A DNA stretch of 64,000 bases from an uncultured virus (IMG/VR IMGVR_UViG_3300025632_000002) (lineage: Duplodnaviria; Heunggongvirae; Uroviricota; Caudoviricetes; Crassvirales): IMG/VR virus record IMGVR_UViG_3300025632_000002; one strand, 5' to 3'. The notes under the pieces are model-generated. The model saw nothing but the letters and a program-made list of their open reading frames with translations, was not told the origin of the DNA and made no database searches. The position numbers and the translations under genes are program-made. Below are positions 262-63,998 of this stretch, piece after piece (the first letter of the stretch is position 1; the number at the start of each line of letters is the position of its first letter).

Positions 262-290
262 TTCATTGAATTTATGTGTCGAGTCCGACA

Positions 291-725
291 CTATTTATTA
301 AATACTGAATCTATGGGGTCTACGTCGATAGCGTAGACGGAACGCCCGTTAGTAATGAGAAGGTCGTGCATCGTGTTGTCCATATCACTGCCGTTCTCGT
401 CTGTCCAATGAGGCTCTACCCTTGGGTTGTAATGAAGGCTCCTGTCCATAAAGGTGATAGGCACTATGTCGGGGGAGAACTCCAAACGCTCGCACTCTAT
501 CCAAGCGCATACCGATTTGTTTGCGCCTCCCTTTATTTTGTTAGCCGTGCCTTTCTGATTGCGTAACCGACAACCGAACATAGCGAGCGTACCTTCGTCA
601 GGGTCTAGATAGTCCACTATGTTCTGTACTTTCTCTGCGCCATAGGCGGGGGTGCTCATCACCTGTGTGACTTGCCACTTCATAAAGTTCTGCCCCGGTG
701 CTAGATGGAATCGTATCTTATACAT
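291..725 (-). CDS. Hypothetical phage early protein
   Basis: 144-aa ORF in a tightly packed minus-strand run; start overlaps the upstream stop. Confidence 0.8.
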   Translation of the reverse strand: MYKIRFHLAPGQNFMKWQVTQVMSTPAYGAEKVQNIVDYLDPDEGTLAMFGCRLRNQKGTANKIKGGANKSVCAWIECERLEFSPDIVPITFMDRSLHYNPRVEPHWTDENGSDMDNTMHDLLITNGRSVYAIDVDPIDSVFNK

Positions 726-1287
726 TGATTTCTTGTTTTGATTTACGCATTATTTTCACTTTCCTACTTAGCCTCCTAGTCATAGACTGAGGGGCGTATA
801 CACTATACATATCAGAGTTCATTACCTCAAGTGCTTTTTCGTGAGCCGACCTATGCCACAACCAAACGGCTGTATTGCTTACCAAAAGGCACACAGCACC
901 CACGTCTTTAATGACCTCAACGTTGTTGTCCACAAAGCTGTAACCCATTTTGTGCAGAGCAAATGCCCAATGGATATTTTGTTTTTTACATCGCTCAAGG
1001 AACTCAAGCCTATGATTCCATAGCGTATCATTCCTATCCGAAGGATGCTCGACCTTCATATGAGCGTATGTCTTTTGGTAGAAGTTCAATACGTTTTTAT
1101 ACTCTTCACTAGGGATGCTAGAGGCAATCATAAATGACTCAAGGCAAGACCTCAGTTCCTCCCTACTCAGTTCATCGAACTCTTGTTGAGAGACGCCCAT
1201 CGATATCATCTTACCCTCTAGGTTAGATGCAAGAATCATATCCTTGGAATCTATCAGCGTTTGGGTTGTAGGAATCCACTCCATCAC
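718..1287 (-). CDS. Hypothetical phage early protein
   Basis: 189-aa ORF with ATGA-type overlap to the upstream gene. Confidence 0.75.
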   Translation of the reverse strand: MMEWIPTTQTLIDSKDMILASNLEGKMISMGVSQQEFDELSREELRSCLESFMIASSIPSEEYKNVLNFYQKTYAHMKVEHPSDRNDTLWNHRLEFLERCKKQNIHWAFALHKMGYSFVDNNVEVIKDVGAVCLLVSNTAVWLWHRSAHEKALEVMNSDMYSVYAPQSMTRRLSRKVKIMRKSKQEINV

Positions 1288-1514
1288 TCAGGGAGGCTAT
1301 CGAAGTTTTTCTCCTCTAAGTTGCGATGCTCCAAGCGGAAGTCCTTGTTCATCATACAAGCCGCCCTCTTGAGTTCGTAGTTCAGCATCCTACCCGCTGA
1401 ATCCATAAGCTTGGCTTGTGCCGAAGCCTTGAATACATCAATCTCGTCTTTGTCTAGTTGCTCCATCGTCTTGGTGAGCAGAGCGAACATACTCTTCGTG
1501 TTTATTGGTTTCAT
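1284..1514 (-). CDS. Hypothetical phage protein
   Basis: 76-aa ORF coupled to both neighbours. Confidence 0.75.
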   Translation of the reverse strand: MKPINTKSMFALLTKTMEQLDKDEIDVFKASAQAKLMDSAGRMLNYELKRAACMMNKDFRLEHRNLEEKNFDSLPE

Positions 1515-1741
1515 TATTTTATGTTTAAGAATTTTATCATATCCTGTTCCGTCTTGATTGTAGACTTATCCCATCTAGATGTGTCTCCATCAAGCCATTC
1601 ACTATACATCTCATCTACCTCGTACCCATCGCTGTCCATAAGTATGGGAGCGAACATACCGCGCGTGTACCACTCGTTCACTATCGCCCATACCTGAGTC
1701 TCGGATAGGTTCATATCCTTGATGATGCTTTCATTATCCAT
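1514..1741 (-). CDS. Hypothetical phage protein (likely start MDNESII)
   Basis: ORF track 1514..1771; ATG at 1741 overlaps the end of the upstream gene. Confidence 0.7.
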   Translation of the reverse strand: MDNESIIKDMNLSETQVWAIVNEWYTRGMFAPILMDSDGYEVDEMYSEWLDGDTSRWDKSTIKTEQDMIKFLNIK

Positions 1742-2270
1742 TTCTTCCGTCTTTAGGGGTGTCACGCTCATACTTTCGCATCACCTCATCTACCACCCCG
1801 TCTGCATCTAGGTGTTGGTTGAGTTGGATGGTAATCGTACCGCTCAAGGATAGGTCACCGACTGACTCGTCTACCTCGTGCTCGATATCATCCACGTTCA
1901 GCATCTCTGTCTTGACATACTCCAACGCGTGGCAGAACCCCGCGAAGAACGATTCGTCTATGGCTTTTGTGTCGGGTTCGACACTCTCTACGCTCAAGCC
2001 CTTGATATACGCTACGACTGCCCTGTACGTACCTTCGATATTGCCATCGGTTAGGTGCATAGTTATGTCTCCAATGTGCTCACCTTCCGCGCCTGATTCG
2101 TAGCACTTCTGCACCACAGGCATCAGCCAATCCCACGAGGTGTGGTAGGACATTGATTCGACAGGAACAACTTCATTGCTTCCAGTATCGTCTACTCGTG
2201 TCATACAACTTGAGTCTTGGTGATGGGGTTTCATCCCCATAAATTCTGCTATTAGTTTATTCTGATTCAT
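1734..2270 (-). CDS. Hypothetical phage protein with NKLIAEFMG...YHTSWDWLMPVV motif
   Basis: Motif recognised as common in Bacteroidota phage hypotheticals; ATG at 2270 overlaps the upstream stop. Confidence 0.75.
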   Translation of the reverse strand: MNQNKLIAEFMGMKPHHQDSSCMTRVDDTGSNEVVPVESMSYHTSWDWLMPVVQKCYESGAEGEHIGDITMHLTDGNIEGTYRAVVAYIKGLSVESVEPDTKAIDESFFAGFCHALEYVKTEMLNVDDIEHEVDESVGDLSLSGTITIQLNQHLDADGVVDEVMRKYERDTPKDGRNG

Positions 2271-2485
2271 AACAATCCTGAGTTTATAATTATCGTGCAA
2301 GGTCTCGTGCGTACTATCTCAAGTGCGCCATTTAGTTTGTAATACAGAGAGCGGGGGTTATTGTCGTGCTCCTCTTCGCTCACGTCATCCCATATAGACC
2401 ACACCAATTCGGTGCGCCCGTCATCGAGCCTCCTTACAGAGTAGTACTCGTCTCCTTGATTGAATGGATATAATTTGTTCATCAT
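2267..2485 (-). CDS. Hypothetical phage protein (MMNKLYPF...)
   Basis: ORF track 2267..2563; ATG at 2485 follows an A-rich leader. Confidence 0.7.
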   Translation of the reverse strand: MMNKLYPFNQGDEYYSVRRLDDGRTELVWSIWDDVSEEEHDNNPRSLYYKLNGALEIVRTRPCTIIINSGLL

Positions 2486-2495
2486 TTGTCGTGTT

Positions 2496-2717
2496 TTACA
2501 GTCGTGGTTTTCGGTGGGTTGCTTCGATTTCAATCTCGTGCTCCAAGGTTTCTGAGCCGTCACGCCCGTCGTGATTTATGACATCTACGATTTGCACATT
2601 TATTTTGTACATATCTGTGCCTGACTCTGCGTCATCACCAACGTAGGTCACCATCACTGGGGTGTCATCGCCCAGCGGTATTTCATTCAGGGCATCAATT
2701 AGTTGTTTCTTTGTCAT
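2496..2717 (-). CDS. Hypothetical phage protein (MTKKQLIDALNE.. type)
   Basis: 73-aa ORF; N-terminus resembles that of 3296..3517. Confidence 0.7.
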   Translation of the reverse strand: MTKKQLIDALNEIPLGDDTPVMVTYVGDDAESGTDMYKINVQIVDVINHDGRDGSETLEHEIEIEATHRKPRL

Positions 2718-2878: not shown

Positions 2879-2883
2879 TGCTT

Positions 2884-3165: not shown

Positions 3166-3187
3166 ATCTTGTCGTGTTTGGATTGCA

Positions 3188-3274: not shown

Positions 3275-3295
3275 AATTTCTGATTGATTTTTCGT

Positions 3296-3517: not shown

Positions 3518-3544
3518 TTGGTTTATGTGTCGAGTCCGACACTA

Positions 3545-3945: not shown

Positions 3946-3963
3946 CTCTCTTTTCTTACGCAG

Positions 3964-4290: not shown

Positions 4291-4326
4291 TTGGTTTTTT
4301 GTGTCGACCCCGACACAGGTTTAAAT

Positions 4327-4719: not shown

Positions 4720-4761
4720 ATCTCTACTGTATTTTGTGTCGACACCGACACTGATTAAAAT

Positions 4762-4810
4762 TAGAAGGGGAGAGAGGATTCGAACCTCCCGAAGCACCAA
4801 GCCTCCCCTT
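4762..4810 (-). ncRNA. tRNA-like element B (acceptor stem plus T-arm, no anticodon arm)
   Basis: AAGGGGAG...GGAGG-TTCGAAT-CCTCT-CTCCCCTT-CTA; canonical T-loop; 6 nt after the stop at 4817. Confidence 0.65.
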
Positions 4811-4816
4811 GAAGGC

Positions 4817-5569
4817 TTACGCCTCGACCTCGAGAGGAGCAACAACCCCGAGGGATTGCGCTACCTTCTCGAACATCGCAAGCAATGCCTGTTGGTTGCC
4901 ATTGAACGACTTGACGCTGCCGTCATCGTTGAAGTGAATCGAGCCGCTCACCGCATCAGTCGAGACAACGAACTGAGCAGCGACTCCCGCCATCTCCTCG
5001 TCGCTGAACTCCTCACCTTCACCCTCGCCATCACCCTCAGACTCCGCAACCGCCTCCTCCTTCACAGGAACTGCCGCCGCTGGCTTCTCCGCCTTCATCC
5101 AAGCGTTGTACGAGTCCACATCCAAAGCGCATCGCTCATCCAAAGCAAGCATCGCATCCCGATACAGCACGAACTCAGCACCCGAGTCAGCGTCTCCAAT
5201 CAGGAACGACCCAGCCGTAGCGTGGCGGTGGAAGTAGGACTTGCTCATCTCGATGGCAACCCACAACCGCTCCCGCTCCTCCTTGACCTTGCGCCCGTCA
5301 GCCTTGATGAAAGCTTTGAACTCAGGAGCATTGAACGCCTCCAAGCGAGCCGACAGCAACGTGCCAAGCTTCAGCGACTTGTGGAACATATCCACCGAGC
5401 CTTTCTTGATGCTCTCGTTCAACTTGACAATCGGAGCAGTCGCTCGCAACGCCTTGAGCGTAGCCTTGACCTCAGCCGATTGTGTCGGAGCCGACACAGA
5501 CTGAGCGTTTGACTTAGTACCTTCTGCAACCTTTGCGGTGGTTGCGACCTTGTTTGTTGTTTGCTTCAT
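4817..5569 (-). CDS. Early protein with basic N-terminus, possible HTH and acidic C-terminal linker
   Basis: ORF track 4817..5782; ATG at 5569 (MKQTTNK); LWVAIEMSKSYFHRH segment looks HTH-like (inference). Confidence 0.8.
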   Translation of the reverse strand: MKQTTNKVATTAKVAEGTKSNAQSVSAPTQSAEVKATLKALRATAPIVKLNESIKKGSVDMFHKSLKLGTLLSARLEAFNAPEFKAFIKADGRKVKEERERLWVAIEMSKSYFHRHATAGSFLIGDADSGAEFVLYRDAMLALDERCALDVDSYNAWMKAEKPAAAVPVKEEAVAESEGDGEGEGEEFSDEEMAGVAAQFVVSTDAVSGSIHFNDDGSVKSFNGNQQALLAMFEKVAQSLGVVAPLEVEA

Positions 5570-5606
5570 AGCAGTATTAGATTTGTGGGCTTTGCCCGAT
5601 TTTAAT

Positions 5607-5655
5607 TGGAAGGAGTTAGGGACTCGAACCCTACGCGCACCGACTGCGACCCCTT
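5607..5655 (-). ncRNA. tRNA-like element A (acceptor stem, D-like hairpin, T-arm, CCA; no anticodon arm)
   Basis: AAGGGGT-CGCAGTCGGTGCG-CG-TAGGG-TTCGAGT-CCCTA-ACTCCTT-CCA; 6 nt after the stop at 5662. Confidence 0.7.
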
Positions 5656-5661
5656 GGTAGA

Positions 5662-6048
5662 TTACTTGAGCGACTGCGCGATGTCTAAAGCATACAAATC
5701 GGCTATCAAATCCGATTTCGTTTCCCATTGCTCCGAGACCTCGATGTCCCATATAATCTCTTTGTTCACAATATCGCAACACTCGTTGCTGTCAATTGTC
5801 CAATAGTCAGTCACGCATCCGTCAAGGAATATCTCAGCGTGGATGTTCACCCCGCTGTATCTATACCCCGAACCCGTCTTCGTAACCTTGGCTCCAAACC
5901 GCTTCAATCTATTGCTCAAGCTATTTGTGTTCTTGACTCGACTGAACTTCGATAGGTATGCCTTGCGTGTCAACTTACCATCTCGGTACTCTTGGTTGAC
6001 CACCTCAAGCATATCGTTGATGTTTGGTATGTGTTCGTTGGGTGTCAT
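5662..6048 (-). CDS. First early gene, hypothetical (MTPNEHIP...)
   Basis: ORF track 5662..6099; ATG at 6048 lies downstream of the promoter-like element. Confidence 0.75.
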   Translation of the reverse strand: MTPNEHIPNINDMLEVVNQEYRDGKLTRKAYLSKFSRVKNTNSLSNRLKRFGAKVTKTGSGYRYSGVNIHAEIFLDGCVTDYWTIDSNECCDIVNKEIIWDIEVSEQWETKSDLIADLYALDIAQSLK

Positions 6049-6132: not shown

Positions 6133-6542
6133 CAGAAGAAAACTTCATTTTAATTGCATCGACTCCAACAGCACCACAGCACGATTCAAGCACAGCACAC
6201 AGAGCGAGCAACAGCCGTTGCCCCCAATTCATTTGAGCGCGGAAGGGGAAGGGCGGGGGTTAAGGGAAGGCTCCCTCTCTCTCCCTTTCGTGGAGAGTGC
6301 AAGTCTGTGCCCTTGCATCCCCGCCATTTCGTGTCGGACTCGACACTGCACCGGAGCGTGTACCCTACCATCAACCGGTACAGGGTAGGCGGTTCGAACC
6401 GCTGAGGGAAAACGCCAAAAAATCGGGACAACGCTCGGCAATCCTTACCCCCTCCCCCGAAAAAAAAATCGGTTTCCATTTCGAGGCGCGTCGCGTAATG
6501 TGTATATATAGCCCCCTTGCTTTCGGTATCTCGAAAAAGAAT

Positions 6543-6972: not shown

Positions 6973-7162
6973 AGTGTAGAGAGTCTACACTAAAATGTAG
7001 AGTTTAAAAAAAGTCTACACAAAAAAATCCTAGTGTTTATGGTAGTTATAGAGTGAAGTGTTAAGAATGTTAAGTTTACTCTCTACTATAAGAGTTCAAG
7101 AAAAATATATATAGTAGTTATTGTCCATATATATATATAGGGAAAAAAGTCTACATTCTACA
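6973..7162. repeat. Origin-like element, copy 1 (TGTAGA/TCTACA repeats and AT run)
   Basis: About 100-bp imperfect direct repeat of 62183-62280, with an identical 17-mer AGTGTTAAGAATGTTAA at 7057 and 62183. Confidence 0.7.
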
Positions 7163-10143: not shown

Positions 10144-10397
10144 AGCCAATCAATAAATACCTTGTCATCGACCCTATCGACGAACAGTTTGTTTCTTCGT
10201 CTGGCTTGATTTTATCTACGGAAGACGCTAAATCGTTTCGCTATAAAAAAGCTACGGTAGTAGAGTCTGGCACTCAGATAGATACGATACATAAAGGCGA
10301 CGTTATCTATTACGACAAGAACGCTGGTCACTCTATGATGATAGGCGACGTTACGTACACTATCATTCTTGAGAGGGACGTTGTTGTTGTCGTATAG
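10140..10397 (+). CDS. groES: Co-chaperonin GroES
   Basis: MKPINKYLVI, SSGLIL mobile loop, KGDVIYY and ERDVVVV; adjacent to groEL. Confidence 0.9.
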   Translation: MKPINKYLVIDPIDEQFVSSSGLILSTEDAKSFRYKKATVVESGTQIDTIHKGDVIYYDKNAGHSMMIGDVTYTIILERDVVVVV

Positions 10398-10842
10398 ACT
10401 GGTTAATTTTTTTGATGTAGTTACGGTATACTACGTCTGTATAGGGGGCGCTCTTTTTGAACATAGGGTTGGCGGATTGTGTTTCTGCGAACTCTTGCCC
10501 GTTGAGTTTATTGTATACGGCATTGAGCATAGCTCTTCCTTTGTATGAGAGTTCGTACAGGGCTTTTTGATTGCCTTTACGCTTTCTAAATACGTGTATC
10601 CATCCGTCACGCAAGAGGTCGGAGAATCGTTTTTTATTCCAGCTCATCAGCTGGTTGTATTCATCGAACGTATCTTTTGTGAAGTACGATTCTGAATATA
10701 GGAAGAGGAGCATCTCTAGCTCTACGGTTCCGAGTCCGTAGTTTGATTTTACCCACCTACGTATTACGCGCCAGTACTTTAGGTAGTCGTTGGGCGGTTC
10801 TGTGCGGCTGTACCGCTTGCGAATGTTTTTGTGAATCTTCAT
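10363..10842 (-). CDS. Putative winged-helix (MarR-like) DNA-binding protein
   Basis: LEMLLFL...FSDLLRDGWIHVFRKR...LYELSYKGR pattern; only minus-strand gene in this block; likely start at ATG 10842. Confidence 0.7.
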   Translation of the reverse strand: MKIHKNIRKRYSRTEPPNDYLKYWRVIRRWVKSNYGLGTVELEMLLFLYSESYFTKDTFDEYNQLMSWNKKRFSDLLRDGWIHVFRKRKGNQKALYELSYKGRAMLNAVYNKLNGQEFAETQSANPMFKKSAPYTDVVYRNYIKKINQSIRQQQRPSQE

Positions 10843-51900: not shown

Positions 51901-54900
51901 ACGCTGCTAAGCTATCTGAGATGATTCCTGGATGGGATAAGATGTCCGCTGAAGAGCTGTCAAGTAAGATTCAGAAGGCTAGTATGGACCTCAAGAAGAG
52001 GGCTACCTTCAAGTCTAACCCTAAGCTCGACGAGGTACGTAAGGCTGGAAATAACTTGAGCAAGCAAGTAAGCGCTGAAGTTGAAGCTCCTCGTAACAGC
52101 TCACAGCGTAAGTTTATCAACGAGGTCTTTACTGAGTTGCAGGCTAAGCTCAAGAACGATTACGATATTGACATTACGATTGCAGATTTGCAGGCGGTAA
52201 ACTGGTATCCAGAGAAGGCTTTATATCAAACATTTAAAGCTGACCAAAGTACGAAGACAGGGAAAGTCGAGACCAGTGACAATGAGCAGCCCGACTATGA
52301 GAGTGCTGCCAAGAAATTAGTAGAAGAACAGGGCGTATCTAAAAAAGAAATTAAAGAAGATGAAGCAAGACGAAGTAAACAGCTTGAGCGAAACACCGCC
52401 AATCGAGAAGCTATCGAGCAAAGAGCAGGGGAGCTTAATAAAGATGATATCGAGGCTTCCGAAGTCAAGCGTCTCAAAGACAAAATAATATCCGTCAAAG
52501 AAGACGTCACTTCGTCGGGCCTTGAAGAAGGCGTAGCCCCTCGCCAGCAACTGAGTGATATCGCTACTCCGCTTCCGCGTCAGCAGAAGTCGGTACGTGA
52601 GGTGGTGCAGCAGGCGAGAGACAATAACTTCAAGGACGCAGCAACCAAAGACTTCCTCAAGCGCAAGGGTGTGCCAACAGCAGACATAGACAAGGCTATC
52701 AAGACCTTGGACGAGGTATACGCCCGAGTGATGAAGGAGATTGACGGCGTCATCACTAAGTCTCAGAAGCGCGGTGTCGACTTCGACACACAACTGAAGA
52801 ACGCGCTGGCTTACCTACAAGGCACTAAGCTCTACGAGGATACCACGGATATCCACAGAGAGAAGTTGATGCGTGAGGTACGCGCTAAATTCGATAAGAA
52901 AGAAAAGCGAGCACCGTCAGCGAAGCGTATCCTTGGAAACATTAAAGACGTCAAGAAGGTGACGCTAAAGGAGAAGGAGGCGCTCAAGATGCAGCTGAGG
53001 CTCGTAGCTAAGACCGCTAAAACCACAGCGAGAGCTTTGGTGGTAGCGAGCAATGAACTGACTAAGTCACTGAAGGAGATGGTCAAGGGTGGTGTCATCA
53101 CTGCCAATCAGATGAGCTCTGTCCTGCGTCGGTTCAGCCGAGTGGACCTGTTCAACCCCGCCAGCATCGATAGCTTCTTGGACTATATGGCTAAGATATT
53201 CGCCGATGCTGAGTACGGAGCGAAGATTGCTAGAATCAAGAAGCTGCTTCCTCGAGCCAAGAAGAATATAAAGTCTAAGATTGGCGTTGCCGACGTGCTC
53301 GGTGACACCCTCACTAAGCTCTTCAATGTCAACCCTACGTTGATACCGATGGAGATGCTTGAGGACTATCAAAATCTCCTTGAGATGATGGGTGCTGCGA
53401 AGAAGGTGCTCCCACTTGCAGACATCAACGATGTAACGGAGGTAGCTAATAAGCTGCTTAACGCGGTATACGAAGAGGTATCGATGGCCGAGGACTTGGC
53501 CGAGGTATTTGCGAACTACGAGAATAAAGTCATCAAGGACGGCAAGGTAGACTACGCAGCTACCGTTCGCGCTATGATAGCTGACGAGACCATATCAGAG
53601 GCGGAAGCCACTGTAATGATTAAGTACAAGTCCCGTATCGTAGAGTCTACCACGAAAGAACCTAAGACCGAGGAGGAGCTAGCCGAGGAAAGGGCTGAGC
53701 TTATGTCGGCGGTTGATGCGGCCAAGGTCAACGTCTCGCGTCTCGTTATGGACGAGGAACGAACCTTAGCTCGTCAGCTCGCCAAGCTGATGCGTACCGA
53801 GGCTATCGAGAGGCTCAGCAACCAGCAGCTAGAGACGCTGCTAGCCGTCATCGACAACATCAACAACGGCTTCGTAACCCACGCGGCCAATAGGTTGTAT
53901 GTAAATATGAACGCTTTAAACAATGATAATCAATTGGCAGACTCTTTACAGGAAGCTGACCCGTTATCTATATCAAAGTTTGTAGCCAAGATAAAAGGTG
54001 GCATTACTCAGAATAATAAATTCTTTGAAGCTATCAAGAGACGGCCATTGGCATATATAGATTCATTGTTCGGAGACTTCAAAACTAACCGTATATACAA
54101 CTCTGTATTTAGGCCATTGGCAAAAGCTTTTGACTCTATGAATGTAGAGATTCAAAGAATCGAGGAGCGGTTAGATAATGCAGAAAATGCAGTAAGAAAG
54201 TCTTTTAAACGCAATCCAAATAAAGTTCGCTTGTCATCGTACAAGAGGATGACGTATATGTTACAGCGTGAGTTTGAAGCTAATCCTGATAACGGACAGG
54301 TAAACCCAGCTGCTGACTTCATCCGAGCTACCATTGACCATATCAATGAAGGGAAGTCTTTCTTCAAGGGCAGAGACGCAGAGATGCTTCAGCAAATACT
54401 TGACGACTTCGGTGTAAGTGTTAAGGACGCGGACGGAAATGAAGTTATACAGATTGACTCTCAGAAGCTGTACGACTCATTCAATAAAGCAGAGCGCAAT
54501 GCGATTGTAGTAGCAGAAGACATAAACAAGTCTCTTGCAAGCAAAGCTTCATTTACAGCAGCAGTAATTCAAGGTAGAAGAGCCGATATATTAAACCAGT
54601 ACGCACACCATAACGTACTGAGTAGTAGCGAGCAAGCTGACAAGTCAACAAGTATATCAGAAATTCAGAAATACAACCAGTCACTTCGGGCCTCTACCAA
54701 AGCTAAGAATTCAATTGAGCGTACGGGAGCCGTAACTCCATTGAACTTTGATGTGTTAACGTCGGTGTCGCGAGGCGCTAAAATGATGCTAACAGACTTC
54801 TACCTTACAGACCCTGTACGCACATCACGAAAGACCATATCGAATACGCGTAAAGTTTTAGAGGAAAGGGGCAACGCAACAAAGCAGGACAAAGAAATAT

Positions 54901-56510
54901 TAAACGCAATTGACCAAGCCCTTGAACTTGCCCTTGACGACGTCTTAACCAAGACTTTCACGCAGGGAACTATGGTAGACAACATCATTCAGTACATATC
55001 GAAGACGGGCTACCGAGTAGTTTTGGCCTCAGTGAGTCGTTTTGGAGCGGAAGGGTTGAGTAATAGTGGATTTGTATCCTTGTTTGCTCCGAAACAAATG
55101 GCGTTGGGTTTGTCGAAAGAGAATATGAAACTGTCCATTGGTAGTGGGGGAACCGCAGTAGATATTCTGTCTGCTCTAGGTAGCACACAAATTTCTAGGT
55201 TATTTCCTGACCAGATGCTGTCTGGACGTATGATTGACACTTCAGTTCTTGGGGAAAAGTCTGGAGATAAAGGGGGTAGAGCTTATGGCGAGGTAGCCAA
55301 CAAGATGTTGCAGATATATAATGGAGTAGTAAAACCTGGGAAAGAGGGTGTCGAGAGGGTGGCTGATGGATTAATATCTACCCCAGATAAAGCCGTTATC
55401 CGACCGCTATGGTTTGGGTCTTTTGAATATAAGTTCGAGGAACTTACAAAGAAGAAACCAGATATGGACAAGATAGCCGCAAACGATGAGGCTTATATGG
55501 ATGCTAATCAAAAAGCCCTAGACGAAGCTACTGACTATGCGGACCAGATGACGACATTTGCTGGAGCCGCCGACAATCCATTCAAAGGTCTTCTTAAAGG
55601 CAAGTACCCGTCAAGCGTGAAGCAGTCGGCTATGCTTCAAGCGTTTAACATATCTAACAGCTTTATGACCCGCTTCTTGATATATGAATTTATATCAGCT
55701 CAAATAGGAACGTACGCTATGATGGGTAGGGGTATGATTTCTAAACGTCAAGGTGCGGCACTCCTCGGAGCCGTTACCACCCGTATGGTAGTGTATACTT
55801 TGTTAACCACTTTATTTGCTCAGATATTTAAGCAAGCGTTTGGATTGGGTGATGAGGAAGAAGAGAAAGACATAGAGAAGCAGTTCGGTCAGGCACTGGC
55901 CTCTACTGCCGTCAGCCTTATAGTAGGCCGAGACTTCGGTAACATAGTGAAGGGTCTCCTTAACTACGGGGTGGAGAACCTCAACGAAGAGTTCCTAGAC
56001 GAGCTACGTGACGGAGACTACGACCCGTACCGAGACGCTATCGCGTACACCTTTGTTCCGCCAGACAAGGAGTACAAGTCCAACACGCTAGCGGATTACA
56101 TACGTAACCTGATGGGTCCGTTCGGCCCCTTCTATAAGATGGCGGAGTTCGGTGTGAAGACGCTTAGCGCCGACGAGAAGAAAGACCCAGCGGCACGTAT
56201 ACGTCAGCAGCGAGAGCTCAATGAACGACTCCCGCTCGAGTTACTCGGAAACTTAGGATTGATTCCTCTGTACCGCGATATCAGGGCGCTCTTACTAGCC
56301 GATATCTACAAGGGTATGGGCAAGGAGAAGAAAGGAAGCAGTACAGGTATGACTAAGGCTGAAAAGGCTCAGATGAAGGAATACTTCCCTGAACTATACA
56401 AGATGCAGATGCAGATGGAAGAAGATATGAAGAACCCTGAGCTCGAGAAATTCGAAAAAGAGATGAAGCTACTTGAAAAGCAGCTTGAAGAATCCCTAAA
56501 GCAGCGCTGA
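45978..56510 (+). CDS. Giant polyvalent, probably ejected, virion protein (zincin peptidase, ART-like, HhH-glycosylase-like and GrpE-head-like domains)
   Basis: 3510 aa; APHEVFH; FHFG...GYGIYF...YASRYG...LGYDG; WYD...AITSNG...GPKIG..F.NL...TMDRW..R. Confidence 0.8.
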   Translation: MNEQVIDDLYARALQSGYKKGRADFVQLIQSNEDVFNDMYQYVQSKGYAKDAQSFSSLVGKRTAPTVKKKVTASVSEPGSLVSPEPEVPVETAIAPATEAAEPATTLTGAADPDFFEERMEMISPQLIDRGDEDEVAQELTDVFKPYGFEVEPAGIGDAIKVTAGNGKSIEVDLDPFEMPKILSPFGLDFNTETETAEAKKLQDFLRENRQEGLDAPRRFVTNKQRDDEVKRINQKQKEINRSAQDYLKRKLEFQNKYPQFLTYDPEYIKNNPEEYQRFLNDRDSLEKEREFLVEIDQKAKEEGAQLDRLAGEYTEMLAQRGYWSGGVFRNEFIQGIAEIVAGAKDFALDTAYDPKFLMETDPEFFRDNYLKEAADKGYDVPSASDMTVDEFKAWMKTDKGIPAKESIAIQTSIVDTKLKRRKRGEPIDYEEALNAYSQYATSKNMEVTDGELAALRRGLDFLKDPESTPEAADLMYESFWGGALLGVTRSLPAILVPGGFITRTAAMYSQISSALEQEMAKDPDFRDISEAERFRLKLAIGSASSVLESLGVRNVLKQKGLLTGILMKALKKTPANVKGKAFNEVVMREINSAIGRGALVVTSAGLAEFETGFLQEGVDIGFKNVYNEMKGRDMFETPEGARDIFGRMLYAGAQEAVGGFVLGTPGAISAARRSYDFTAVDDATFEMFENVSSQTARGELTYRHMFYTNLQARINRGEISKADAQQEMDNLDEVIAVNRDIPSDLTVSQKKKALGILLRKKDLQEQIEGKDPILVKRQQEELNSLNRELDQILYGTPETDAIQEQGPESVDAPEPTRDSEAVGEGVPDIGEPTTEVEAQDDVTDEAPAPTTEVAVDEAPTEKQQKGLQRRIDRSKKDFAAATSLEEKAKALVRYLNSVSNSKGIASEEDAAWYEANKAELEAEGFVFDDIGDELADGKPADIRNEETSDAVPKGKIIIKAVVKPGRVVDGKAVSRPTYDVIRGTGTTAARDALVAELKALEDELTTDNFNEISPKLKAARKALKDYDDANFPSSKSVAAPKKSAPKKTVSEPTQEVTEEVAVEETVPVEVEPVTAQSARYAQLIEDTPDSVVELFENWTKSLFSPEIEAIENKEPSNRTRSESAKLAAVTRRMKKALAAAEAAGLDNSAQIELERAVRERLETQEAAAVVAENVSEPTQEVTEEEQVDIDEFFGEQDIEGVEKVSENLVINRKQKAPTADPKSQRRMNRVRQMSVKAAASIRKIAPEVKILIHESPEEYQRFAGEQTAGNYNPKTKTIHINLGKANLYTAPHEVFHALLLQTISTDSEALTVSRKMLESVRKVVDPNSQMAKDIDEFVARYGDAPTIQDEEYLAQLTGILTAEYRTLNKPAKNAVKDFLRKLAKMLGLEKYLGPEFLKTDEQVIDLLNTISRRMSEGEYIEAADVQAMGDILSEATPAEQAQAQREVRDFKRKERERKATEENLLNRSQEYVQDFDELERLNNEGVMFHFGPVDIQEVMPEKLRLMVSGYGIYFIDKAESPTTYSLYASRYGKRVTLVDGNGMNLVDSGSKISKEEFTTLMDTFNKEVAALDEVSPEITELSDYLNELDLDLQGANPTWYEMLTTMSPDLLPSDSDFFLGGVIDKAYNYTNPQKMFIAEVTAKALGYDGATSIIGKGSIEEHSVVNVWNFDKVNKNIISDEAVTPRMQVVPRQQVADAATSIQESLKFADKSSFPNKLEFKRALQERFDNEVYPLIKERYGVKDNRSNTDQGLKDYLVDAYLNETLTAIEAYPDALGWYDARITGAMSLMEKLHPELATDKDAASTFKIALAITSNGNKVYDNFVEANRQYEYFKENGKFDDTYSIGDQRAGILSTLAFTNKALESMSMADFTAFLTTKYRAGDLKYMKDGKKTPLLPGFAVDEEVYGASIFGPKIGNGFFMNLYGEFNQLTMDRWFMRQFGRLTGTLIDYDQKKVDAGTKRLNRAIKALAKRNAAKLSEMIPGWDKMSAEELSSKIQKASMDLKKRATFKSNPKLDEVRKAGNNLSKQVSAEVEAPRNSSQRKFINEVFTELQAKLKNDYDIDITIADLQAVNWYPEKALYQTFKADQSTKTGKVETSDNEQPDYESAAKKLVEEQGVSKKEIKEDEARRSKQLERNTANREAIEQRAGELNKDDIEASEVKRLKDKIISVKEDVTSSGLEEGVAPRQQLSDIATPLPRQQKSVREVVQQARDNNFKDAATKDFLKRKGVPTADIDKAIKTLDEVYARVMKEIDGVITKSQKRGVDFDTQLKNALAYLQGTKLYEDTTDIHREKLMREVRAKFDKKEKRAPSAKRILGNIKDVKKVTLKEKEALKMQLRLVAKTAKTTARALVVASNELTKSLKEMVKGGVITANQMSSVLRRFSRVDLFNPASIDSFLDYMAKIFADAEYGAKIARIKKLLPRAKKNIKSKIGVADVLGDTLTKLFNVNPTLIPMEMLEDYQNLLEMMGAAKKVLPLADINDVTEVANKLLNAVYEEVSMAEDLAEVFANYENKVIKDGKVDYAATVRAMIADETISEAEATVMIKYKSRIVESTTKEPKTEEELAEERAELMSAVDAAKVNVSRLVMDEERTLARQLAKLMRTEAIERLSNQQLETLLAVIDNINNGFVTHAANRLYVNMNALNNDNQLADSLQEADPLSISKFVAKIKGGITQNNKFFEAIKRRPLAYIDSLFGDFKTNRIYNSVFRPLAKAFDSMNVEIQRIEERLDNAENAVRKSFKRNPNKVRLSSYKRMTYMLQREFEANPDNGQVNPAADFIRATIDHINEGKSFFKGRDAEMLQQILDDFGVSVKDADGNEVIQIDSQKLYDSFNKAERNAIVVAEDINKSLASKASFTAAVIQGRRADILNQYAHHNVLSSSEQADKSTSISEIQKYNQSLRASTKAKNSIERTGAVTPLNFDVLTSVSRGAKMMLTDFYLTDPVRTSRKTISNTRKVLEERGNATKQDKEILNAIDQALELALDDVLTKTFTQGTMVDNIIQYISKTGYRVVLASVSRFGAEGLSNSGFVSLFAPKQMALGLSKENMKLSIGSGGTAVDILSALGSTQISRLFPDQMLSGRMIDTSVLGEKSGDKGGRAYGEVANKMLQIYNGVVKPGKEGVERVADGLISTPDKAVIRPLWFGSFEYKFEELTKKKPDMDKIAANDEAYMDANQKALDEATDYADQMTTFAGAADNPFKGLLKGKYPSSVKQSAMLQAFNISNSFMTRFLIYEFISAQIGTYAMMGRGMISKRQGAALLGAVTTRMVVYTLLTTLFAQIFKQAFGLGDEEEEKDIEKQFGQALASTAVSLIVGRDFGNIVKGLLNYGVENLNEEFLDELRDGDYDPYRDAIAYTFVPPDKEYKSNTLADYIRNLMGPFGPFYKMAEFGVKTLSADEKKDPAARIRQQRELNERLPLELLGNLGLIPLYRDIRALLLADIYKGMGKEKKGSSTGMTKAEKAQMKEYFPELYKMQMQMEEDMKNPELEKFEKEMKLLEKQLEESLKQR
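48379..48546 (+). CDS. Nested out-of-frame small basic protein MPFKSKAQRAWMHQNLPEIAKRWEKEYP... (55 aa)
   Basis: Read manually in the +1 frame of the giant gene; resembles small phage proteins of the MPFKS.KQR.WM....PE.A.RW type. Confidence 0.7.
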   Translation: MPFKSKAQRAWMHQNLPEIAKRWEKEYPTSENLPQRLKPKTTLRMKLQRRRRKSR

Positions 56511-56588: not shown

Positions 56589-57001
56589 AGCAGCATATCT
56601 GTGATGTCCTTACCCATCGATATGTGAAGGTACGATACTTCTTTTCGCTTGGTTTTTCCCCTGTCCCAATGCGTCTTTACGGGCAGCGTTTTAAATGACC
56701 ACGATAAAGCGTCGCTTTTTTTAATGTGGTCTAAATCAAAAGCCCATACCCCTTTGGGGGTGGAGTTTAAGTAGATAGGACGAGTGCCGTTCTTTCCTGA
56801 TTCCCGAAGCAGTCGGTCCCATTTGCTACGCTCTATCATAAGGTCGTCATAGTGTCGGCGCCGACACTTTAACTCTATCTGCATATTGAGGTCCTCGCTA
56901 AAGCAATCGTAGGTGCTATTGCTTTTTTTGTATGATAGTAAGTCTGGGATTAACTTGTCGCGAAGAACTTTATAAAGGTCTTTCTCATTTATGTATCTCA
57001 T
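56585..57001 (-). CDS. PD-(D/E)xK-like nuclease
   Basis: YDC...IELKCR...LMIE..KWD.L motif. Confidence 0.7.
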   Translation of the reverse strand: MRYINEKDLYKVLRDKLIPDLLSYKKSNSTYDCFSEDLNMQIELKCRRRHYDDLMIERSKWDRLLRESGKNGTRPIYLNSTPKGVWAFDLDHIKKSDALSWSFKTLPVKTHWDRGKTKRKEVSYLHISMGKDITDMLL

Positions 57002-57182: not shown

Positions 57183-57404
57183 CTATCTAAGTAGTATTTT
57201 GGCCTCTTCAGGGTTAACGCTTTTAATAGCTTGATATATTTTCCTTGATTTCTTGTGGACCTCTTCTATTTCTTTCTTTAAAGAATCGGCCCCAAGCTCA
57301 GTATACATAAAGCAATCTATCTTTAAAAGCGCGTCCACCTTCTGTCTGTCCGTCCACGTTTTAAACCCTAAAATCTTGTCAATGTCGTTTACGTTATAAC
57401 TCAT
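57183..57404 (-). CDS. Hypothetical protein
   Basis: 73-aa ORF in the operon. Confidence 0.75.
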   Translation of the reverse strand: MSYNVNDIDKILGFKTWTDRQKVDALLKIDCFMYTELGADSLKKEIEEVHKKSRKIYQAIKSVNPEEAKILLR

Positions 57405-57918
57405 TGATTAATTGAATTAATTTAGATTGTAATTTTTCTTCTTTACCCTCAGGAACTCGGCTCTTAAGGATAAAAAAAAGTTTCGAAAATCTACCGCCAT
57501 TGCTTTCATAAGTATCTACAGTAGTTTTTAATTCCTTTAACTGCAAAGATAATGTATCTACAGAATCCCGTAATTCATAAATATATTCCCTGAGCTCTTT
57601 AGCTCCCATATCGTAGACAACATCATACTCTACGCTGTGTGATTTTTTTACTCTGGAGTATATTTTTCGCAGTTCAGGAAGTTGCCCTAGCAAATCATTG
57701 GCAATTCGCAAATAGTGCAATACGGTACAATGAGTTTTATTTATCGAGCGCGAGATAAGAGTGCATCCGTAGCCCCTTTCTTTTAAAATTAAGGAGTAAA
57801 TCATACGAGCATCCACATATTTTCTCGCCCTGGTATTCTCCATTATATCCAACCCGAACTCAATCCCTATGGTTTTTTTCAGCTTCGCTGATTCTGTATC
57901 AAATCGGAATGTGCTCAT
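57394..57918 (-). CDS. DnaA C-terminal (domain IV)-like HTH protein with coiled coil
   Basis: TRARKYVDARMI...ISRSINKTHCTVLH resembles DnaA R.R.....R..AM...IG..F.RDHTTV.H. Confidence 0.75.
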   Translation of the reverse strand: MSTFRFDTESAKLKKTIGIEFGLDIMENTRARKYVDARMIYSLILKERGYGCTLISRSINKTHCTVLHYLRIANDLLGQLPELRKIYSRVKKSHSVEYDVVYDMGAKELREYIYELRDSVDTLSLQLKELKTTVDTYESNGGRFSKLFFILKSRVPEGKEEKLQSKLIQLINEL

Positions 57919-58438: not shown

Positions 58439-59671
58439 TTACAAACTTAATAAATCCCTTTTGAAGTGCTTGAGCGTGTAGTCTTTCTTACGCGCCACAG
58501 CTTGGTAGATATCCTTCTCGATACCGCCCTCGGAGAACACCCAGTAGACATCGTTCTTGAGCCTGTCCTTAGTGGTCATCCTATCCCTTGACTGCCAGTA
58601 ACTTGTCGCACTGAAGTCGATGTTGTAGTAGACCAAGGCGTCAGCCTTCCTTAGCGATATCCCCTCGCGACCGCTCACTATCTGAAGGGCTATGTTCTTG
58701 TCCGTCTCGTTGAACTCGTCGAGCTCCGTAGTAAGGTCATCCCCGAACACCTTCTTCAAAGCGTTGAGCTCTTCCTTGAACTTATAGAAGATACCTACCT
58801 TCTGCTTCTTGAATCGCTCGCGTATAAACTCCGCCTTGCTGTAGTCCAATACCATCGAAGCGCCGCTCTCGAACTTGACCGTTCCCGAGCATAGTTGGTG
58901 TACCTTCTGCATCAGCTTGACCGCTGTATCCGCCAGTATCACCTCCTCCTTACCCTCGACCACCTTGTCGCGCTTGAGCCGCCGCACCAGATTTTGTGTC
59001 GAGTCCGACATTTTTACGTGCAGCACGTGCTCCTTGGTGTCCACCACGAACCCCGCTTCCTTCTGCGTATACATCAGGGTGTACGGCTTGACCGCGTCTA
59101 TGATGGTCTCTTTGCCTCCCGAGTAGTCATTGACCATATGTAGCCCGCGCCTCTGCTGTCGTACGTTGACGAACTCGTTGGCGAACTTATAGAAGTTCGA
59201 GTAGTAGGAGAATGGATTCCCTGGTATCCCATAGACCTGGTGGTACATAGCTGAGTAAGACTCAGGCGTTGGCGTACCTGACATAAGTATGACATACGGC
59301 CCGTACTTCGCCAGCAACGACCTTACTTGCTTGGACCGCTTGCTCGGCTTCGGGAACGCACCCATCGTGTGCGCTTCGTCACATATCACCACGTCCCAAT
59401 CCCGCGCTGGTATCTTGTGGATACTCTCGTAGTTGATGACGTGGATGAAGTAGTCAGCTCCAAGCATAGCGTTGTCCGCTTCGATACTCGAGATAGCTTT
59501 CTTCTTAGTGAGGAACAATACGTTGCGGGCACCTAACTCTTCGGCAACGGACAGGCTTGTCAATGTCTTACCTGTGCGTACCTCCATCGCTAAGTAACAC
59601 CACCCCGAGTCACGCATCTTAGCAACCGCTTTGTCGCGTATCTCTATTTGGTAGTCGCGGAGCTGTATCAT
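58439..59671 (-). CDS. SNF2/DEAH-type SF2 helicase
   Basis: LRDYQ, RTGKT, CDEAH, SGTP, GREGISL and QSRDR motifs. Confidence 0.9.
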   Translation of the reverse strand: MIQLRDYQIEIRDKAVAKMRDSGWCYLAMEVRTGKTLTSLSVAEELGARNVLFLTKKKAISSIEADNAMLGADYFIHVINYESIHKIPARDWDVVICDEAHTMGAFPKPSKRSKQVRSLLAKYGPYVILMSGTPTPESYSAMYHQVYGIPGNPFSYYSNFYKFANEFVNVRQQRRGLHMVNDYSGGKETIIDAVKPYTLMYTQKEAGFVVDTKEHVLHVKMSDSTQNLVRRLKRDKVVEGKEEVILADTAVKLMQKVHQLCSGTVKFESGASMVLDYSKAEFIRERFKKQKVGIFYKFKEELNALKKVFGDDLTTELDEFNETDKNIALQIVSGREGISLRKADALVYYNIDFSATSYWQSRDRMTTKDRLKNDVYWVFSEGGIEKDIYQAVARKKDYTLKHFKRDLLSL

Positions 59672-62285: not shown

Positions 62286-62295
62286 CACTCGATAG

Positions 62296-62328
62296 AAAAG
62301 GGGTTGAGGAACAGACACCCCAACCCCC
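62296..62328 (-). terminator. Probable intrinsic terminator
   Basis: GGGGTTG...CAACCCC stem followed by TTTTCT on the minus strand, after the 62347 gene. Confidence 0.55.
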
Positions 62329-62346
62329 TATCGTTATGGTATCGAA

Positions 62347-62604
62347 TTAGAACGGAGATTCCTCCGCCTCTTCTTTCTTCTTGCCCTTGCTGGGGTCAGG
62401 GACGAAGGTGTCAAGCAAGAGGTTGTACCCCCCTGCTTTACGTGGAGCAAGCGTGAAGCGTACCTCACCGCGTTCGGTCTTGTGTTCTTCTAAGAACTTC
62501 ACGAATTCTTCAACACGTACTACTACGTTACCTGTGACCCAGTCGGGTGCTTCTTTGCGTGGTTCATAGATATTGAACCCTTCAGCATAAATTGTATCTG
62601 ACAT
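62347..62604 (-). CDS. Putative single-stranded DNA-binding protein
   Basis: Small beta protein with acidic-aromatic C-terminus (EEAEESPF), next to the recombination genes. Confidence 0.55.
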   Translation of the reverse strand: MSDTIYAEGFNIYEPRKEAPDWVTGNVVVRVEEFVKFLEEHKTERGEVRFTLAPRKAGGYNLLLDTFVPDPSKGKKKEEAEESPF

Positions 62605-62665
62605 AGATATGATTTTATTCCCCAAATTAATAACCTCACCCCATCGGGGACATAGAGCTCGGCTT

Positions 62666-63424
62666 TTATAGTGTCTCTCTGATGATATACGACTCTAAAT
62701 TGTCAGTGGCATTTTCTCCGAAGAACTGCTCGTATACCTTTAGTGCTCGCTCGACCTTCTCCTCACCACCACGCACGAAGGCTTCGCTAGGCTCATAGAT
62801 ACCTACCTGTGCGCTCTTCTTGTCGATGGCATAGAACACCAATGGCTTACCGAATATATTCTGGTATATATAGCACTGGCTGTCGTAGTTGTATTTCTTC
62901 GCTGAGAAGCGGAACTCCTTGATGTTGCTCGTGGTCTTTAGGTCGATGATGCAATCCTTGGATATGATGTCGGCTTTCCCTTTCCACCATACGCCATTAA
63001 ACTGCTTCACGCCTGGCACCTCGAAGACGTTTTCATTCAAGTAAATCTGCTGGTACAGCTCGAAGTTCGTCATCATAACGTTGACCAAGTAGTCCATCTC
63101 TTGCTTCTCTTTCTCAAGAAGCAAGACCTCTTTGCCGCTGTCTTCAATTGCCCTCTTGTACACGTTAGTATTGCGAGAGTAACTATCTACGAACTGCCAA
63201 TCCTTGACCTTCTCAGGCTCGAGAATCGATTGGTGGAAGTACCTACCCTTGGCGAACGCTTGGTTGTCAGGTCGGCTGATGCGGAACTCACGCGGGTTAC
63301 TCAGCAGAGAGCCTACGTCTGAGTTCGATATGAACTTCTTACCGAAATCGCCATAGTAGTCGTTGTCGTCACGTAGACGTTCAATAGCCTTAGCTACCTG
63401 TTCCTTCGTGAGCTTACTCAGCAT
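62666..63424 (-). CDS. PD-(D/E)xK exonuclease (RecE/DUF3799-like)
   Basis: ISNS, G.YFH..ILEP, KGKAD, IIDLKTT and Y.YDSQ..IY motifs. Confidence 0.85.
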   Translation of the reverse strand: MLSKLTKEQVAKAIERLRDDNDYYGDFGKKFISNSDVGSLLSNPREFRISRPDNQAFAKGRYFHQSILEPEKVKDWQFVDSYSRNTNVYKRAIEDSGKEVLLLEKEKQEMDYLVNVMMTNFELYQQIYLNENVFEVPGVKQFNGVWWKGKADIISKDCIIDLKTTSNIKEFRFSAKKYNYDSQCYIYQNIFGKPLVFYAIDKKSAQVGIYEPSEAFVRGGEEKVERALKVYEQFFGENATDNLESYIIRETL

Positions 63425-63998
63425 CTGCTATGGCCTTCTTAAAAGATTTCTTCACTGAGGCCGTGACCTTGTACTTAGAACCAATCTCTTCGACGAGGGC
63501 TTCTAAACCCTTGGCTTTGTTTTTTACGATATACTTTAGAACCTTGTCCCAGTTCTCATCGTCTACGTCAAGCTTCAAAAGCTTCTTTTCCTTTGGAGCT
63601 TCTTCTTGTGTCGGCTCCGACACACTTTCTTCGCCCGTCCATAAGCTTAATCCCAAACCGTGAAGCGCAATCGCCTTGACTGTAGAGCGCATAATGGTGT
63701 CGTTGATATCGCGAGAAGTGACCTTTTCGATATTGATGGAGTTATTGCGGTTGTCCATCACAGGCAAGTAGTCGATATGTTCGAGACCGTTAACTATCAA
63801 GCCTACCTTTACATAAGCAGTAACGCCATCGGTAAAATAGTTTAGACCCGTGTGCTCGCTTTCGTAAACTATGCGCTGTGCGCTAGGATAATGCGTTTTA
63901 AGGATATGCCACGCGTGTGACCAAGGTAGGTAGTTAAGGTGTCCTTTCTTTTTTACCTTCTCTTTTACGCTTATTGCGCTGAGAGTTTTGTATGAATT
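63414..63998 (-). CDS. Single-strand annealing protein (Sak3/DUF1071-like), 5'-truncated by window edge
   Basis: Frame stays open to the window end: YKTLSAISV..KV.KKGHLNYLPWSHAW...LPVMD.RN...R..VKAIALHGLGL. Confidence 0.85.
   Translation of the reverse strand, partial: NSYKTLSAISVKEKVKKKGHLNYLPWSHAWHILKTHYPSAQRIVYESEHTGLNYFTDGVTAYVKVGLIVNGLEHIDYLPVMDNRNNSINIEKVTSRDINDTIMRSTVKAIALHGLGLSLWTGEESVSEPTQEEAPKEKKLLKLDVDDENWDKVLKYIVKNKAKGLEALVEEIGSKYKVTASVKKSFKKAIADAE

Follow-up and report, generated by a model that had tools for sequence, protein, structure and literature searches.

The 64,000-nucleotide (nt) stretch analyzed here, IMG/VR record IMGVR_UViG_3300025632_000002 (the window), represents most of the approximately 64-kb genome of an uncultured aquatic podophage that is related to phages of Flavobacteriia. 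It carries multiple copies of a short spaced palindrome, GTGTCGRNNYCGACAC, and this feature is real, strongly non-random and family-wide. The palindrome is read here as a directional RNA stem-loop cassette which punctuates the early operon, acts at the post-transcriptional level and has spread in the manner of the promoter-early stem-loop (PeSL) cassettes of T4-type phages (Arbiol et al., 2010; PMC2839356). The probability of this reading is estimated to be about one half.

Occurrence of the palindrome in the window and in related phages

Exact matches to the palindrome were found at 13 positions of the 64-kb window, compared to none in all 100 dinucleotide-preserving shuffles. Allowing up to one mismatch to GTGTCG-N4-CGACAC resulted in 14 matches (shuffle mean 0.14, maximum 2), the mismatch copy being the one at 58996, which ends in ...CGACAT. 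The centre has the form R-N-N-Y in 14 of 14 window copies and in 12 of 12 copies of locus L004 (record G002), a 64,532-bp relative with terminal repeats whose primase is 90% identical to that of the window phage. The copy positions, the N4 centre and the R-N-N-Y rule had been listed in an earlier note on this DNA, and all of them were reproduced by the motif count against shuffled sequence. The minus-strand early/replication block, which covers 21.9% of the window, holds 10 of the 14 copies (binomial P = 1.1e-4).

A primase search of IMG/VR identified 272 matching stretches in uncultured aquatic phages, and 80 loci were fetched. Together with the window and MW202828.1, a circular record of 60,850 bp whose terminase is 73.5% identical to that of the window, 82 sequences were examined for palindromes. 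A dominant palindrome (6-bp stem, at least 3 copies) was detected in 35 of these 82 sequences, with a total number of 221 copies. For the other 47 sequences, the early block was not covered or no palindrome was dominant at that stringency.

Each genome was found to have its own spelling of the palindrome, with at least 12 spellings among the loci fetched, and both arms always change together. The spelling GTGTCG is common to the window, L004, L064 and MW202828.1, and GTGTCT-TYRA-AGACAC was found in 17 loci. The further spellings are GTGTCC (L036), GTCTCT (L065, L077), GAGAGT (L078), GAGGGT (L020, L024), GACGCC (L007), GGGGGAC (L009), GGGGAGC-GCAAT (L011), GGGAGCG-GAAA (L068, L069, L072), AGTTCGG-TCA (L019), ATTAATC-CG-GATTAAT (L023), GGCTCG-N5 (L025) and GAGTCA-N5 (L016).

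The earlier note had named conservation of the motif in relatives as a check, and the motif is indeed conserved, with 12 copies of the GTGTCG palindrome in L004 and 14 copies of GTGTCGTTAACGACAC in MW202828.1. In the latter, all copies are located in the early block at 43745-55154. Nine of the 14 are followed by an ATG at a distance of 16-39 nt (an unannotated ATG in one case), and in 7 of those 9 the palindrome begins about 4 nt past a stop codon. A concentration of 70% of all copies in 1.8-12.2% of the genome was found for six of the 11 other whole records (G002, G009, G005, G004, G011 and MW202828.1), and for G024 and G025 the same share of copies occupies about 25% of the genome.

Direction, spacing and RNA context of the hairpin

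The direction of the palindrome was analyzed for all 221 copies of the 35 sequences by searching for an ATG-initiated open reading frame (ORF) of at least 30 amino acids (aa) that starts within 60 nt downstream. On the early-sense strand, such an ORF start was found downstream of 101 of the 221 copies, and 70 of these are located at a distance of 14 to 23 nt, with a mode of 16 nt. The opposite strand gave 27 ORF starts and no distance peak. For the early-block copies of the window, the base 3′ of the palindrome is an A in 8 of 10 cases read in sense compared to 3 of 10 read in antisense, and the complementary T is not found ahead of the palindrome. The copies have shared flanks of 17 nt and longer.

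The four early intergenic copies of the window, described in the earlier note as lying just before start codons, were confirmed at 14, 15, 16 and 16 nt before a minus-strand ATG. All four are read on the minus strand. The copy at 276..291 (sense centre GACT) precedes the ATG at 261-259 by 14 nt, and the copy at 3527..3542, which coincides with a mosaic breakpoint between the window and L004, precedes the ATG of the ORF 3296-3511 by 15 nt. The copies at 4301..4316 and 4736..4751 are both found 16 nt before an ATG, the first before the ORF 3964-4284 (weak HNH-like match) and the second, which follows a tRNA-like element, before the ORF 4384-4719. A further minus-strand copy (6331..6346) is located in a GC-rich, apparently non-coding stretch of about 400 nt that heads the early block. 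This stretch has no credible ORF, and its aligned part (6330-6540) is nearly identical in G002.

The intergenic gaps with a palindrome are about 38 nt in length from stop codon to ATG, and there is no room for a promoter in them. In window positions 1-7200, no TAnnTTTG box was found on the early strand. The downstream flank is A-rich in sense and no T-run is present on either strand, so the element does not have the makeup of an intrinsic terminator. A repeated intergenic cassette with a stem-loop beside the starts of early ORFs was identified in the window as well as in its relatives.

In the relatives, part of the hairpins are fused to ribozymes. A hammerhead core was detected within 12 nt 3′ of the hairpin on the sense strand of 18 of the 221 copies and on the other strand of none. 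These copies belong to 11 loci (L024, L009, L020, L038, L041, L044, L055, L071, L077, L078 and L079) and to 5 spellings. In L024, type III hammerheads at 600-654, 984-1038 and 2030-2084 (Rfam E 2.5e-7 to 1.9e-5, below the gathering score) begin 1-3 nt past the hairpin. Cleavage by such a hammerhead would provide the upstream product with the hairpin as its 3′ end. Several hairpin-hammerhead units stand in tandem at the head of the early block, and units about 380 nt apart could release discrete RNAs with 5′-OH and 2′,3′-cyclic phosphate ends. In the window, no hammerhead was found in positions 1-8000 (Rfam, E up to 1) or beside any of the 13 exact copies (0 of 13).

Gene-flanking hammerheads in phages and prophages have been proposed to process long transcripts into gene-length mRNAs, as stated in the accessible part of the report (Perreault et al., 2011; PMC3088659). 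The hairpins of the relatives resemble these in being fused to type III hammerheads in an early operon, whereas the hairpin of the window stands alone. The ribozyme-free hairpin is far commoner and is tied to the question of the role of phage hammerheads.

A full Bacteroidota-type promoter (TTTG-N18-22-TAnnTTTG) begins approximately 50-60 nt before the hairpin in four relatives, with promoter and hairpin positions of 241/302 in L017, 4159/4218 in L044, 4355/4408 in L077 and 4598/4645 in L078. In these four the hairpin is therefore placed in the 5′ untranslated region. In MW202828.1, such a promoter is found at 43462, which is 283 nt ahead of the first copy. The full promoter consensus adjoins only a few hairpins in the relatives.

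RNA folding resulted in formation of the hairpin in 8 of 8 contexts, with a folding energy of −8.7 kcal/mol for the hairpin alone, and the leader is mostly open in the folds of the four intergenic copies. In four metatranscriptome runs, 8-19% of the sampled words were present, in short contigs without strand or ends. Contigs from these RNA libraries span the copies at 276, 4301, 5482 and 6331 without containing transcript ends, which is a weak indication of transcription given that DNA carry-over is possible.

Two of the intergenic copies are accompanied by tRNA-like sequences on the minus strand. An element at 4767..4848 lies about 15 nt upstream of the copy at 4736 (Rfam tRNA-Sec, weak, with 24.3 bits and E 0.26), and a tRNA-like 3′ end at about 4320-4400 lies about 15 nt upstream of the copy at 4301. 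Both sequences contain the T-arm GGTTCGAATCC, and similar T-arm-like stretches occur beside hairpins in L004, L016, L019 and L025. True tRNAs beside the hairpins were rejected, since an ARAGORN scan of the window and of the early-region hairpins of 7 relatives gave none. The sole call, a tRNA-Arg in L016, is about 10 kb away from the L016 hairpins.

In the stem-loop reading, the cassette would consist of a stop codon, a 6-bp stem with a 4-nt loop, an A/C-rich leader of about 16 nt and the ATG, and would mark the 5′ side of cistrons in the early/replication operon. The RNA would be the active form. The hairpin may mark or protect the ends created by cutting of the transcript, and it may keep the unstructured leader of the next gene free for ribosomes, with a presumed effect on stability or translation. 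The cut would be made by the fused hammerhead ribozyme in the relatives and, beside the hairpin of the window phage, by an RNase of the cell or of the phage, possibly with the participation of the tRNA-like elements. The presence of one spelling per genome may be due to recombination that spreads and homogenises the cassette, as for the T4 PeSLs, and/or to a sequence-specific factor that reads the spelling.

According to the accessible part of the PeSL report (PMC2839356), these cassettes likewise occur in many copies between small early ORFans, place a stem-loop before the start codon, lie in a variable early region and are linked to gene shuffling. A sigma-70 promoter is present in every PeSL, and the stem-loop of these cassettes has been demonstrated to act as a transcription terminator, whereas most of the gaps of about 38 nt found here are promoter-free. 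Further differences are the 6-bp stem without a U-run, the genome-specific spelling and the additional copies at kept positions inside core genes.

Intragenic copies and candidate readers of the palindrome

Nine copies are located within genes, as had been claimed before. This number holds because the ORFs of the mechanical list that formally contain the copies at 4736 and 6331 are probably not genes. The peptides quoted in the earlier note (VSEPT, VSAPT, VEPDT, GVDFDT, CRRRH and MSDST) were found to be correct on translation. Five of the nine are on the minus strand. The copy at 1969..1984 (VEPDT; sense centre AACC) is part of the ORF 1734-2300, and the copy at 5482..5497 (VSAPT) is part of the ORF 4817-5782 and is nested in a longer predicted RNA helix (z = −4.0). 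The copy at 56852..56867 (CRRRH), in the last gene of the minus-strand block (56585-57001), is kept in L004 at 15368. The one-mismatch copy at 58996..59011 (MSDST) is located in the SNF2-type helicase gene and shows the same mismatch in L004, and the copy at 63608..63623 (VSEPTQE) encodes part of the C-terminal linker of the Sak-like annealing protein.

The four late-block copies are on the plus strand, and all of them are found in acidic linker peptides. One (31782..31797, VSEPT) is part of the ORF 31635-32741 and three are part of the gene of a giant protein. Of the latter, the copies at 49125..49140 and 49500..49515 (both VSEPT) belong to the first and the second of two VSEPTQEVTEE repeats, that is, to a duplication, and the copy at 52774..52789 (GVDFDT) is kept in L004 at 19446.

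The proposal of the earlier note that the nucleic acid is what selection appears to target, as opposed to the peptide, is supported by the relatives, because the position of the palindrome at the helicase and Sak-like codons is kept while the arms and the encoded residues change. At the helicase site, 15 phages of the GTGTCT type encode ELSVF[E/K]DT through the palindrome. L065, of the GTCTCT type, encodes ELSLFEET through its own palindrome, and L036 is a hybrid. The window, L007, L009 and L024, which are of other types, have an ELEEFNTT-like sequence and no palindrome at that position. In the Sak-like gene, a copy is found 58-68 codons before the stop codon in L004, L064, L013, L014 and L017, each in the local spelling, and the copies at 63608 in the window and 51768 in MW202828.1 are about as far before the stops of their Sak-like genes. 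At the level of sequence this shows that the spelling matters and not pairing alone, since the intragenic copies at kept positions match the spelling of their own genome.

A sequence-specific reader could also act on the DNA. The palindrome would then be a double-stranded DNA operator, where a dimeric phage or host protein binds and shuts off, times or protects the early region, an explanation that is possible, though on balance unlikely. The dyad and the 4-bp spacing are fixed in the 13 exact copies of the window, the 14 copies of MW202828.1 and the 12 copies of L004. The perfect dyad, the fixed spacing, the symmetric degeneracy (R...Y) and a centre that occurs in either orientation speak, as sequence features, for a dimeric reader of double-stranded DNA. 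The matching of intragenic copies to the own spelling by non-synonymous change implies a sequence-specific reader as well. In four relatives, the site is located just downstream of a host-type −7 box, which is a classic operator position.

Several observations weigh against a stem-loop acting as RNA. Position 7 is R and position 10 is Y in 26 of 26 copies (14 in the window, 12 in L004), which is a symmetric rule. The arms are identical in all copies of one genome, and a purely structural hairpin needs no such identity. The innermost pair is often unpaired: among the GTGTC[T/C]...[A/G]GACAC sites, TA was found 87 times, CG 4 times, CA 17 times and TG 6 times, and Y6 and R11 assort almost independently. 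In other types, the centre flips between TCAA and TTGA even in start-proximal copies (12 vs. 4), as is expected for a two-fold symmetric reader of double-stranded DNA. The 33 one-mismatch variants, which are not independent of each other, comprise 20 A.C/C.A and 9 G.T/T.G on the sense strand. A G.U bias was considered as a pointer to the folding strand and was rejected, as the sense strand is not favoured and an RNA helix predicts the opposite of 20 vs. 9. The folding z-scores of single copies are modest (−0.1 to −1.8 in 6 of 8). Finally, four window copies lie in late genes, and G016, G015 and G021 (GTGTCT or GTCTCT types) scatter more copies into late genes and need 39-47% of the genome for 70% of their copies.

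The symmetric features can arise from loop inversion combined with weak constraint beside the loop. The strand-specific features were weighed more heavily, because a symmetric reader of double-stranded DNA cannot explain them. Nothing at the DNA level explains why the distance to the ATG is fixed, why the flank is asymmetric and why hammerheads are fused on one strand only, and most copies are located in gaps without a promoter.

The closest published look-alike is a 17-bp dyad repeat of Cluster O mycobacteriophages, TGTTCGGNNNCCGAACA, a repeat of unknown function which its authors took to be a dimer site (Cresawn et al., 2015; PMC4351075, accessible part). It is similar in being an invariant inverted repeat with a free centre, in its dozens of copies per genome, in its intergenic (one operon) and intragenic location and in the recombination between copies. 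The core GTTCGG-N3-CCGAAC of L019 is the same as that of the Cluster O repeat. For the latter, the accessible part of the paper describes one spelling and no link to direction or start codons, whereas the palindrome analyzed here is directional, lies 14-23 nt before the ATG and has at least 12 spellings. Dispersed palindromes at phage gene junctions have thus been known from the Cluster O repeats and the PeSLs, without a settled function. No literature on the present element in phages of Flavobacteriia was found in a search that left most subscription journals outside.

No reader protein was found among the candidates that were compared for co-variation with the palindrome type. The earlier note had suggested the proteins from 4817..5569, 10363..10842 and 57394..57918 as binding partners, and none of the three tracks the palindrome type in the sequence comparison. 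The core winged-helix protein P0121 (10363..10908, minus strand) was found in 25 of the 30 records, including all 18 with a completeness of at least 90%. G009, which is of the AGTTCGG type, has almost the same protein as G012 and G010, which are of the GAGGGT type, and the same holds for G011 and G013; P0121 was rejected because it does not co-vary with the palindrome type. In the complete relative G027 (L108, L109), several stop codons interrupt the winged-helix gene, and at least 6 hairpin copies remain. The ORF 4817..5782 is without homologue in MW202828.1, which has the same arms.

The protein encoded at 57394..57918 (minus strand) is fast-evolving, and its identity does not follow the palindrome type. 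Together with paralogues at about 7100-7900 and 15000-16200 of the loci, it gives a weak match to a helix-turn-helix (HTH) like that of DnaA domain IV. Genes for such a DnaA-C-like HTH were found in 74 of 83 clustered sequences, often as two paralogues. The identity of this protein between the window and L004 is 63%, compared to 90% for the primase and 100% for the winged-helix protein, and identities of 34% (L004 and MW202828.1) and 36% (L004 and L065) were determined for more remote pairs. No homologues were found between the early ORFs of the window and those of MW202828.1, no ORF family is common to all early modules, and no ORF of L065 has L077 as its best match. For the earlier proposal that the palindrome is the binding site of a phage protein, the perfect dyad, the fixed spacing and the symmetric R...Y are in favour, and none of the suggested protein partners tracks the site and strand-specific features speak against it.

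A reader might instead recognize the RNA. The hairpin would then be a genome-specific 'address tag' on early RNAs, read by a sequence-specific factor that tells self from the host or from co-infecting relatives, which is a speculative and quite unlikely extension. Candidates for this factor would be a small phage protein that evolves fast, or a phage RNA that acts in trans and contains the same self-complementary sequence; such an RNA might be the non-coding leader near 6331 or one of the RNAs that ribozymes release in relatives. Such a tag, if true, would serve protection, processing or translation during takeover. It would explain the identical copies, the conversion of intragenic copies to the own spelling and the movement of the spelling with a swappable early module. 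A specific reader, if real, would represent a new layer of self-recognition in phage gene expression in hosts of the Bacteroidota type, whose signals for translation initiation are little understood. The variety of natural spellings, the forms fused to ribozymes and the codon-embedded copies together constitute a natural experiment, in which it is testable whether structure, sequence or both are relevant.

Polymerase, recombination and gene layout of the window phage

In coliphage N4, small hairpins serve as promoters, and an extruded palindrome could similarly be the promoter of an injected or early phage RNA polymerase, with one start per early gene. This explanation is regarded as very unlikely. 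The stem of 6-7 bp and the loop of 2-5 nt agree in size with the N4 hairpins (stem 5-7 bp; PMC4496689, accessible part), which are found in the first-expressed region of a podophage that also packages a protein of about 3500 aa. The copies precede early genes, the early strand lacks TAnnTTTG in positions 1-7200, and the one-mismatch variants lean to G.T when the template strand is considered. According to the preprint on the crAss-like phage phi14:2 (10.1101/2020.03.07.982082), the templates of the virion polymerase are single-stranded, and a motif for early promoters was not found. On the other hand, N4 is described with 3 promoters compared to 14 copies in the window, a host-type promoter is located ahead of some hairpins, and a transcript that starts 4-5 nt past the hairpin would lack part of stem III where a hammerhead is fused.

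The candidate for such a polymerase is the giant protein of 3510 aa (45978..56510, plus strand), which appears to be a 'polyvalent' effector packaged in the virion; phages that are otherwise similar differ in the type of this protein. It contains an HExxH motif (HEVFH). Its homologues carry ART, RadC, DUF3293, LPD and DUF7178 domains, which are domains of the 'polyvalent proteins' described by Iyer et al. (2017; PMC5512222, accessible part), and they also swap Zeta-toxin and acetyltransferase domains. The piece encoded at 53178-55277 gave a sub-threshold match of 46 aa to the Pfam domain vRNAP_dom (E 1.1e-4, 23.1 bits, cut-off 27).

No polymerase was detected by any of the approaches used. The comparison to PDB sequences resulted in no match. 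The DYDID sequence at residue 2061, which resembles the DFDID catalytic motif of a crAss-type virion polymerase, was rejected because an alignment of 100 homologues shows no conservation at this site, where most have E-Y-G-I-D. The AlphaFold model, which covers the C-terminal 911 aa and leaves the N-terminal 2600 aa outside, is all-helical (pLDDT, the model's confidence score, of 57), and Foldseek gave nothing against the PDB at E ≤ 0.001. A search of the ESM Atlas with residues 1700-2400 found viral clusters without name and DUF7178 only. Moreover, the type of giant protein does not follow the palindrome type, and phages with one and the same palindrome can encode unrelated giant proteins. 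No match at E < 1e-8 was obtained between the giant protein of the window and that of MW202828.1, although the arms are the same, and the protein was also rejected as reader. For G015 and G016, both of the GTGTCT type, the identity reaches only 27-29% across about 400 aa.

The palindrome might also be a recombination or mobility signal only, comparable to PeSL, integron attC or REP elements, which forms the junctions for cassette swaps and has no role in expression. This was judged to be highly improbable. L019 and L024 are 83% identical in the replication module and unrelated in the first approximately 7 kb of the early block, which is swapped wholesale; the spelling therefore travels with the variable early module. 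The early ORFs of the window at 2714-3166 (minus strand) show 86-90% protein identity to L009:4464-4885, which is of a different palindrome type, and this points, by sequence similarity, to a recent cassette exchange. The order of these two ORFs is swapped relative to L004 and L009, and the rest of the early block is unrelated. One breakpoint between the window and L004 coincides with the copy at 3527, a Sak-type annealing protein and a PD-(D/E)XK exonuclease are encoded, and PeSL-mediated shuffling is documented (PMC2839356, accessible part). Several other breakpoints are located away from hairpins, and a Pfam scan of 59 proteins or protein pieces of the window gave neither a RAYT/HUH (Y1_Tnp) transposase nor an integrase. 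A recombination signal would also leave the distance to the start codon, the kept intragenic copies and the ribozyme fusion unexplained.

The matS sites of MatP and the parS sites of ParB are short spaced palindromes in several copies which load DNA-organising proteins. The genome organisation of this kind considered in the earlier note is unsupported, because the copies of the window cluster in the early block (10 of 14), precede the ATG at a fixed 14-23 nt, are directional and have sense-only hammerheads in relatives. The palindrome resembles matS and parS in being short, spaced and multi-copy and differs in being tied to the cistron starts of one operon in a directional manner. No MatP- or ParB-like protein was found in Pfam or PHROG scans of the window proteins.

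The minus-strand early block, which consists of small ORFs without known function, runs from 6479 down to 1. The minus-strand block past the window end (64000 down to 56585) is the replication/recombination module with the genes for the Sak-like annealing protein, the exonuclease (PD-(D/E)XK), a primase-helicase, the SNF2 helicase and a VRR-NUC nuclease. The plus-strand block (7198-56510) encodes GroEL/GroES, a fibre-like protein of 2585 aa, an amidase, the terminase, the portal protein, virion proteins and the giant protein. The terminase is about 44% identical to those of phages of Flavobacterium, and remoter matches include phages of Cellulophaga, Tenacibaculum and Maribacter. A megablast of window positions 1-8000 against phage records gave no match.

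In the window and its relatives, the leaders ahead of the start codons are A/C-rich and lack a Shine-Dalgarno sequence, and TAnnTTTG boxes were found upstream of several late genes of the window. The host of the window phage is presumably of the Bacteroidota type, since both features fit such a host. The phage-encoded chaperonins comprise GroEL and two GroES-like proteins (8283-10397 and 26109-26672, plus strand). The search for a host clue by means of the phage GroEL in bacterial genomes resulted in 76 stretches that fit the pattern, of which none encodes a relative of the query.

Between the early and the late block, an AT-rich regulatory region (6870-7160) contains at least 7 copies of TGTAGA/TCTACA that form inverted repeats, including the related 17-bp palindrome GTGTAGA-CTC-TCTACAC at 6974..6990. 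At the same place, G002 has GTGTCGA-GAG-TCGACAC with both arms altered, and its winged-helix protein is 100% identical. Two of the inverted repeats of this region have other sequences in both arms at the same places in G002, one of the two being changed only partly. These repeats could be an operator, an origin or a terminator. A pair of plus-strand ORFs without family match (6548-6697 and 6697-6864) is also located between the two blocks. A TACCTTTG box at 6543 (plus strand) points toward these ORFs, and the second of them (55 aa) lies in sequence that is well conserved with G002.

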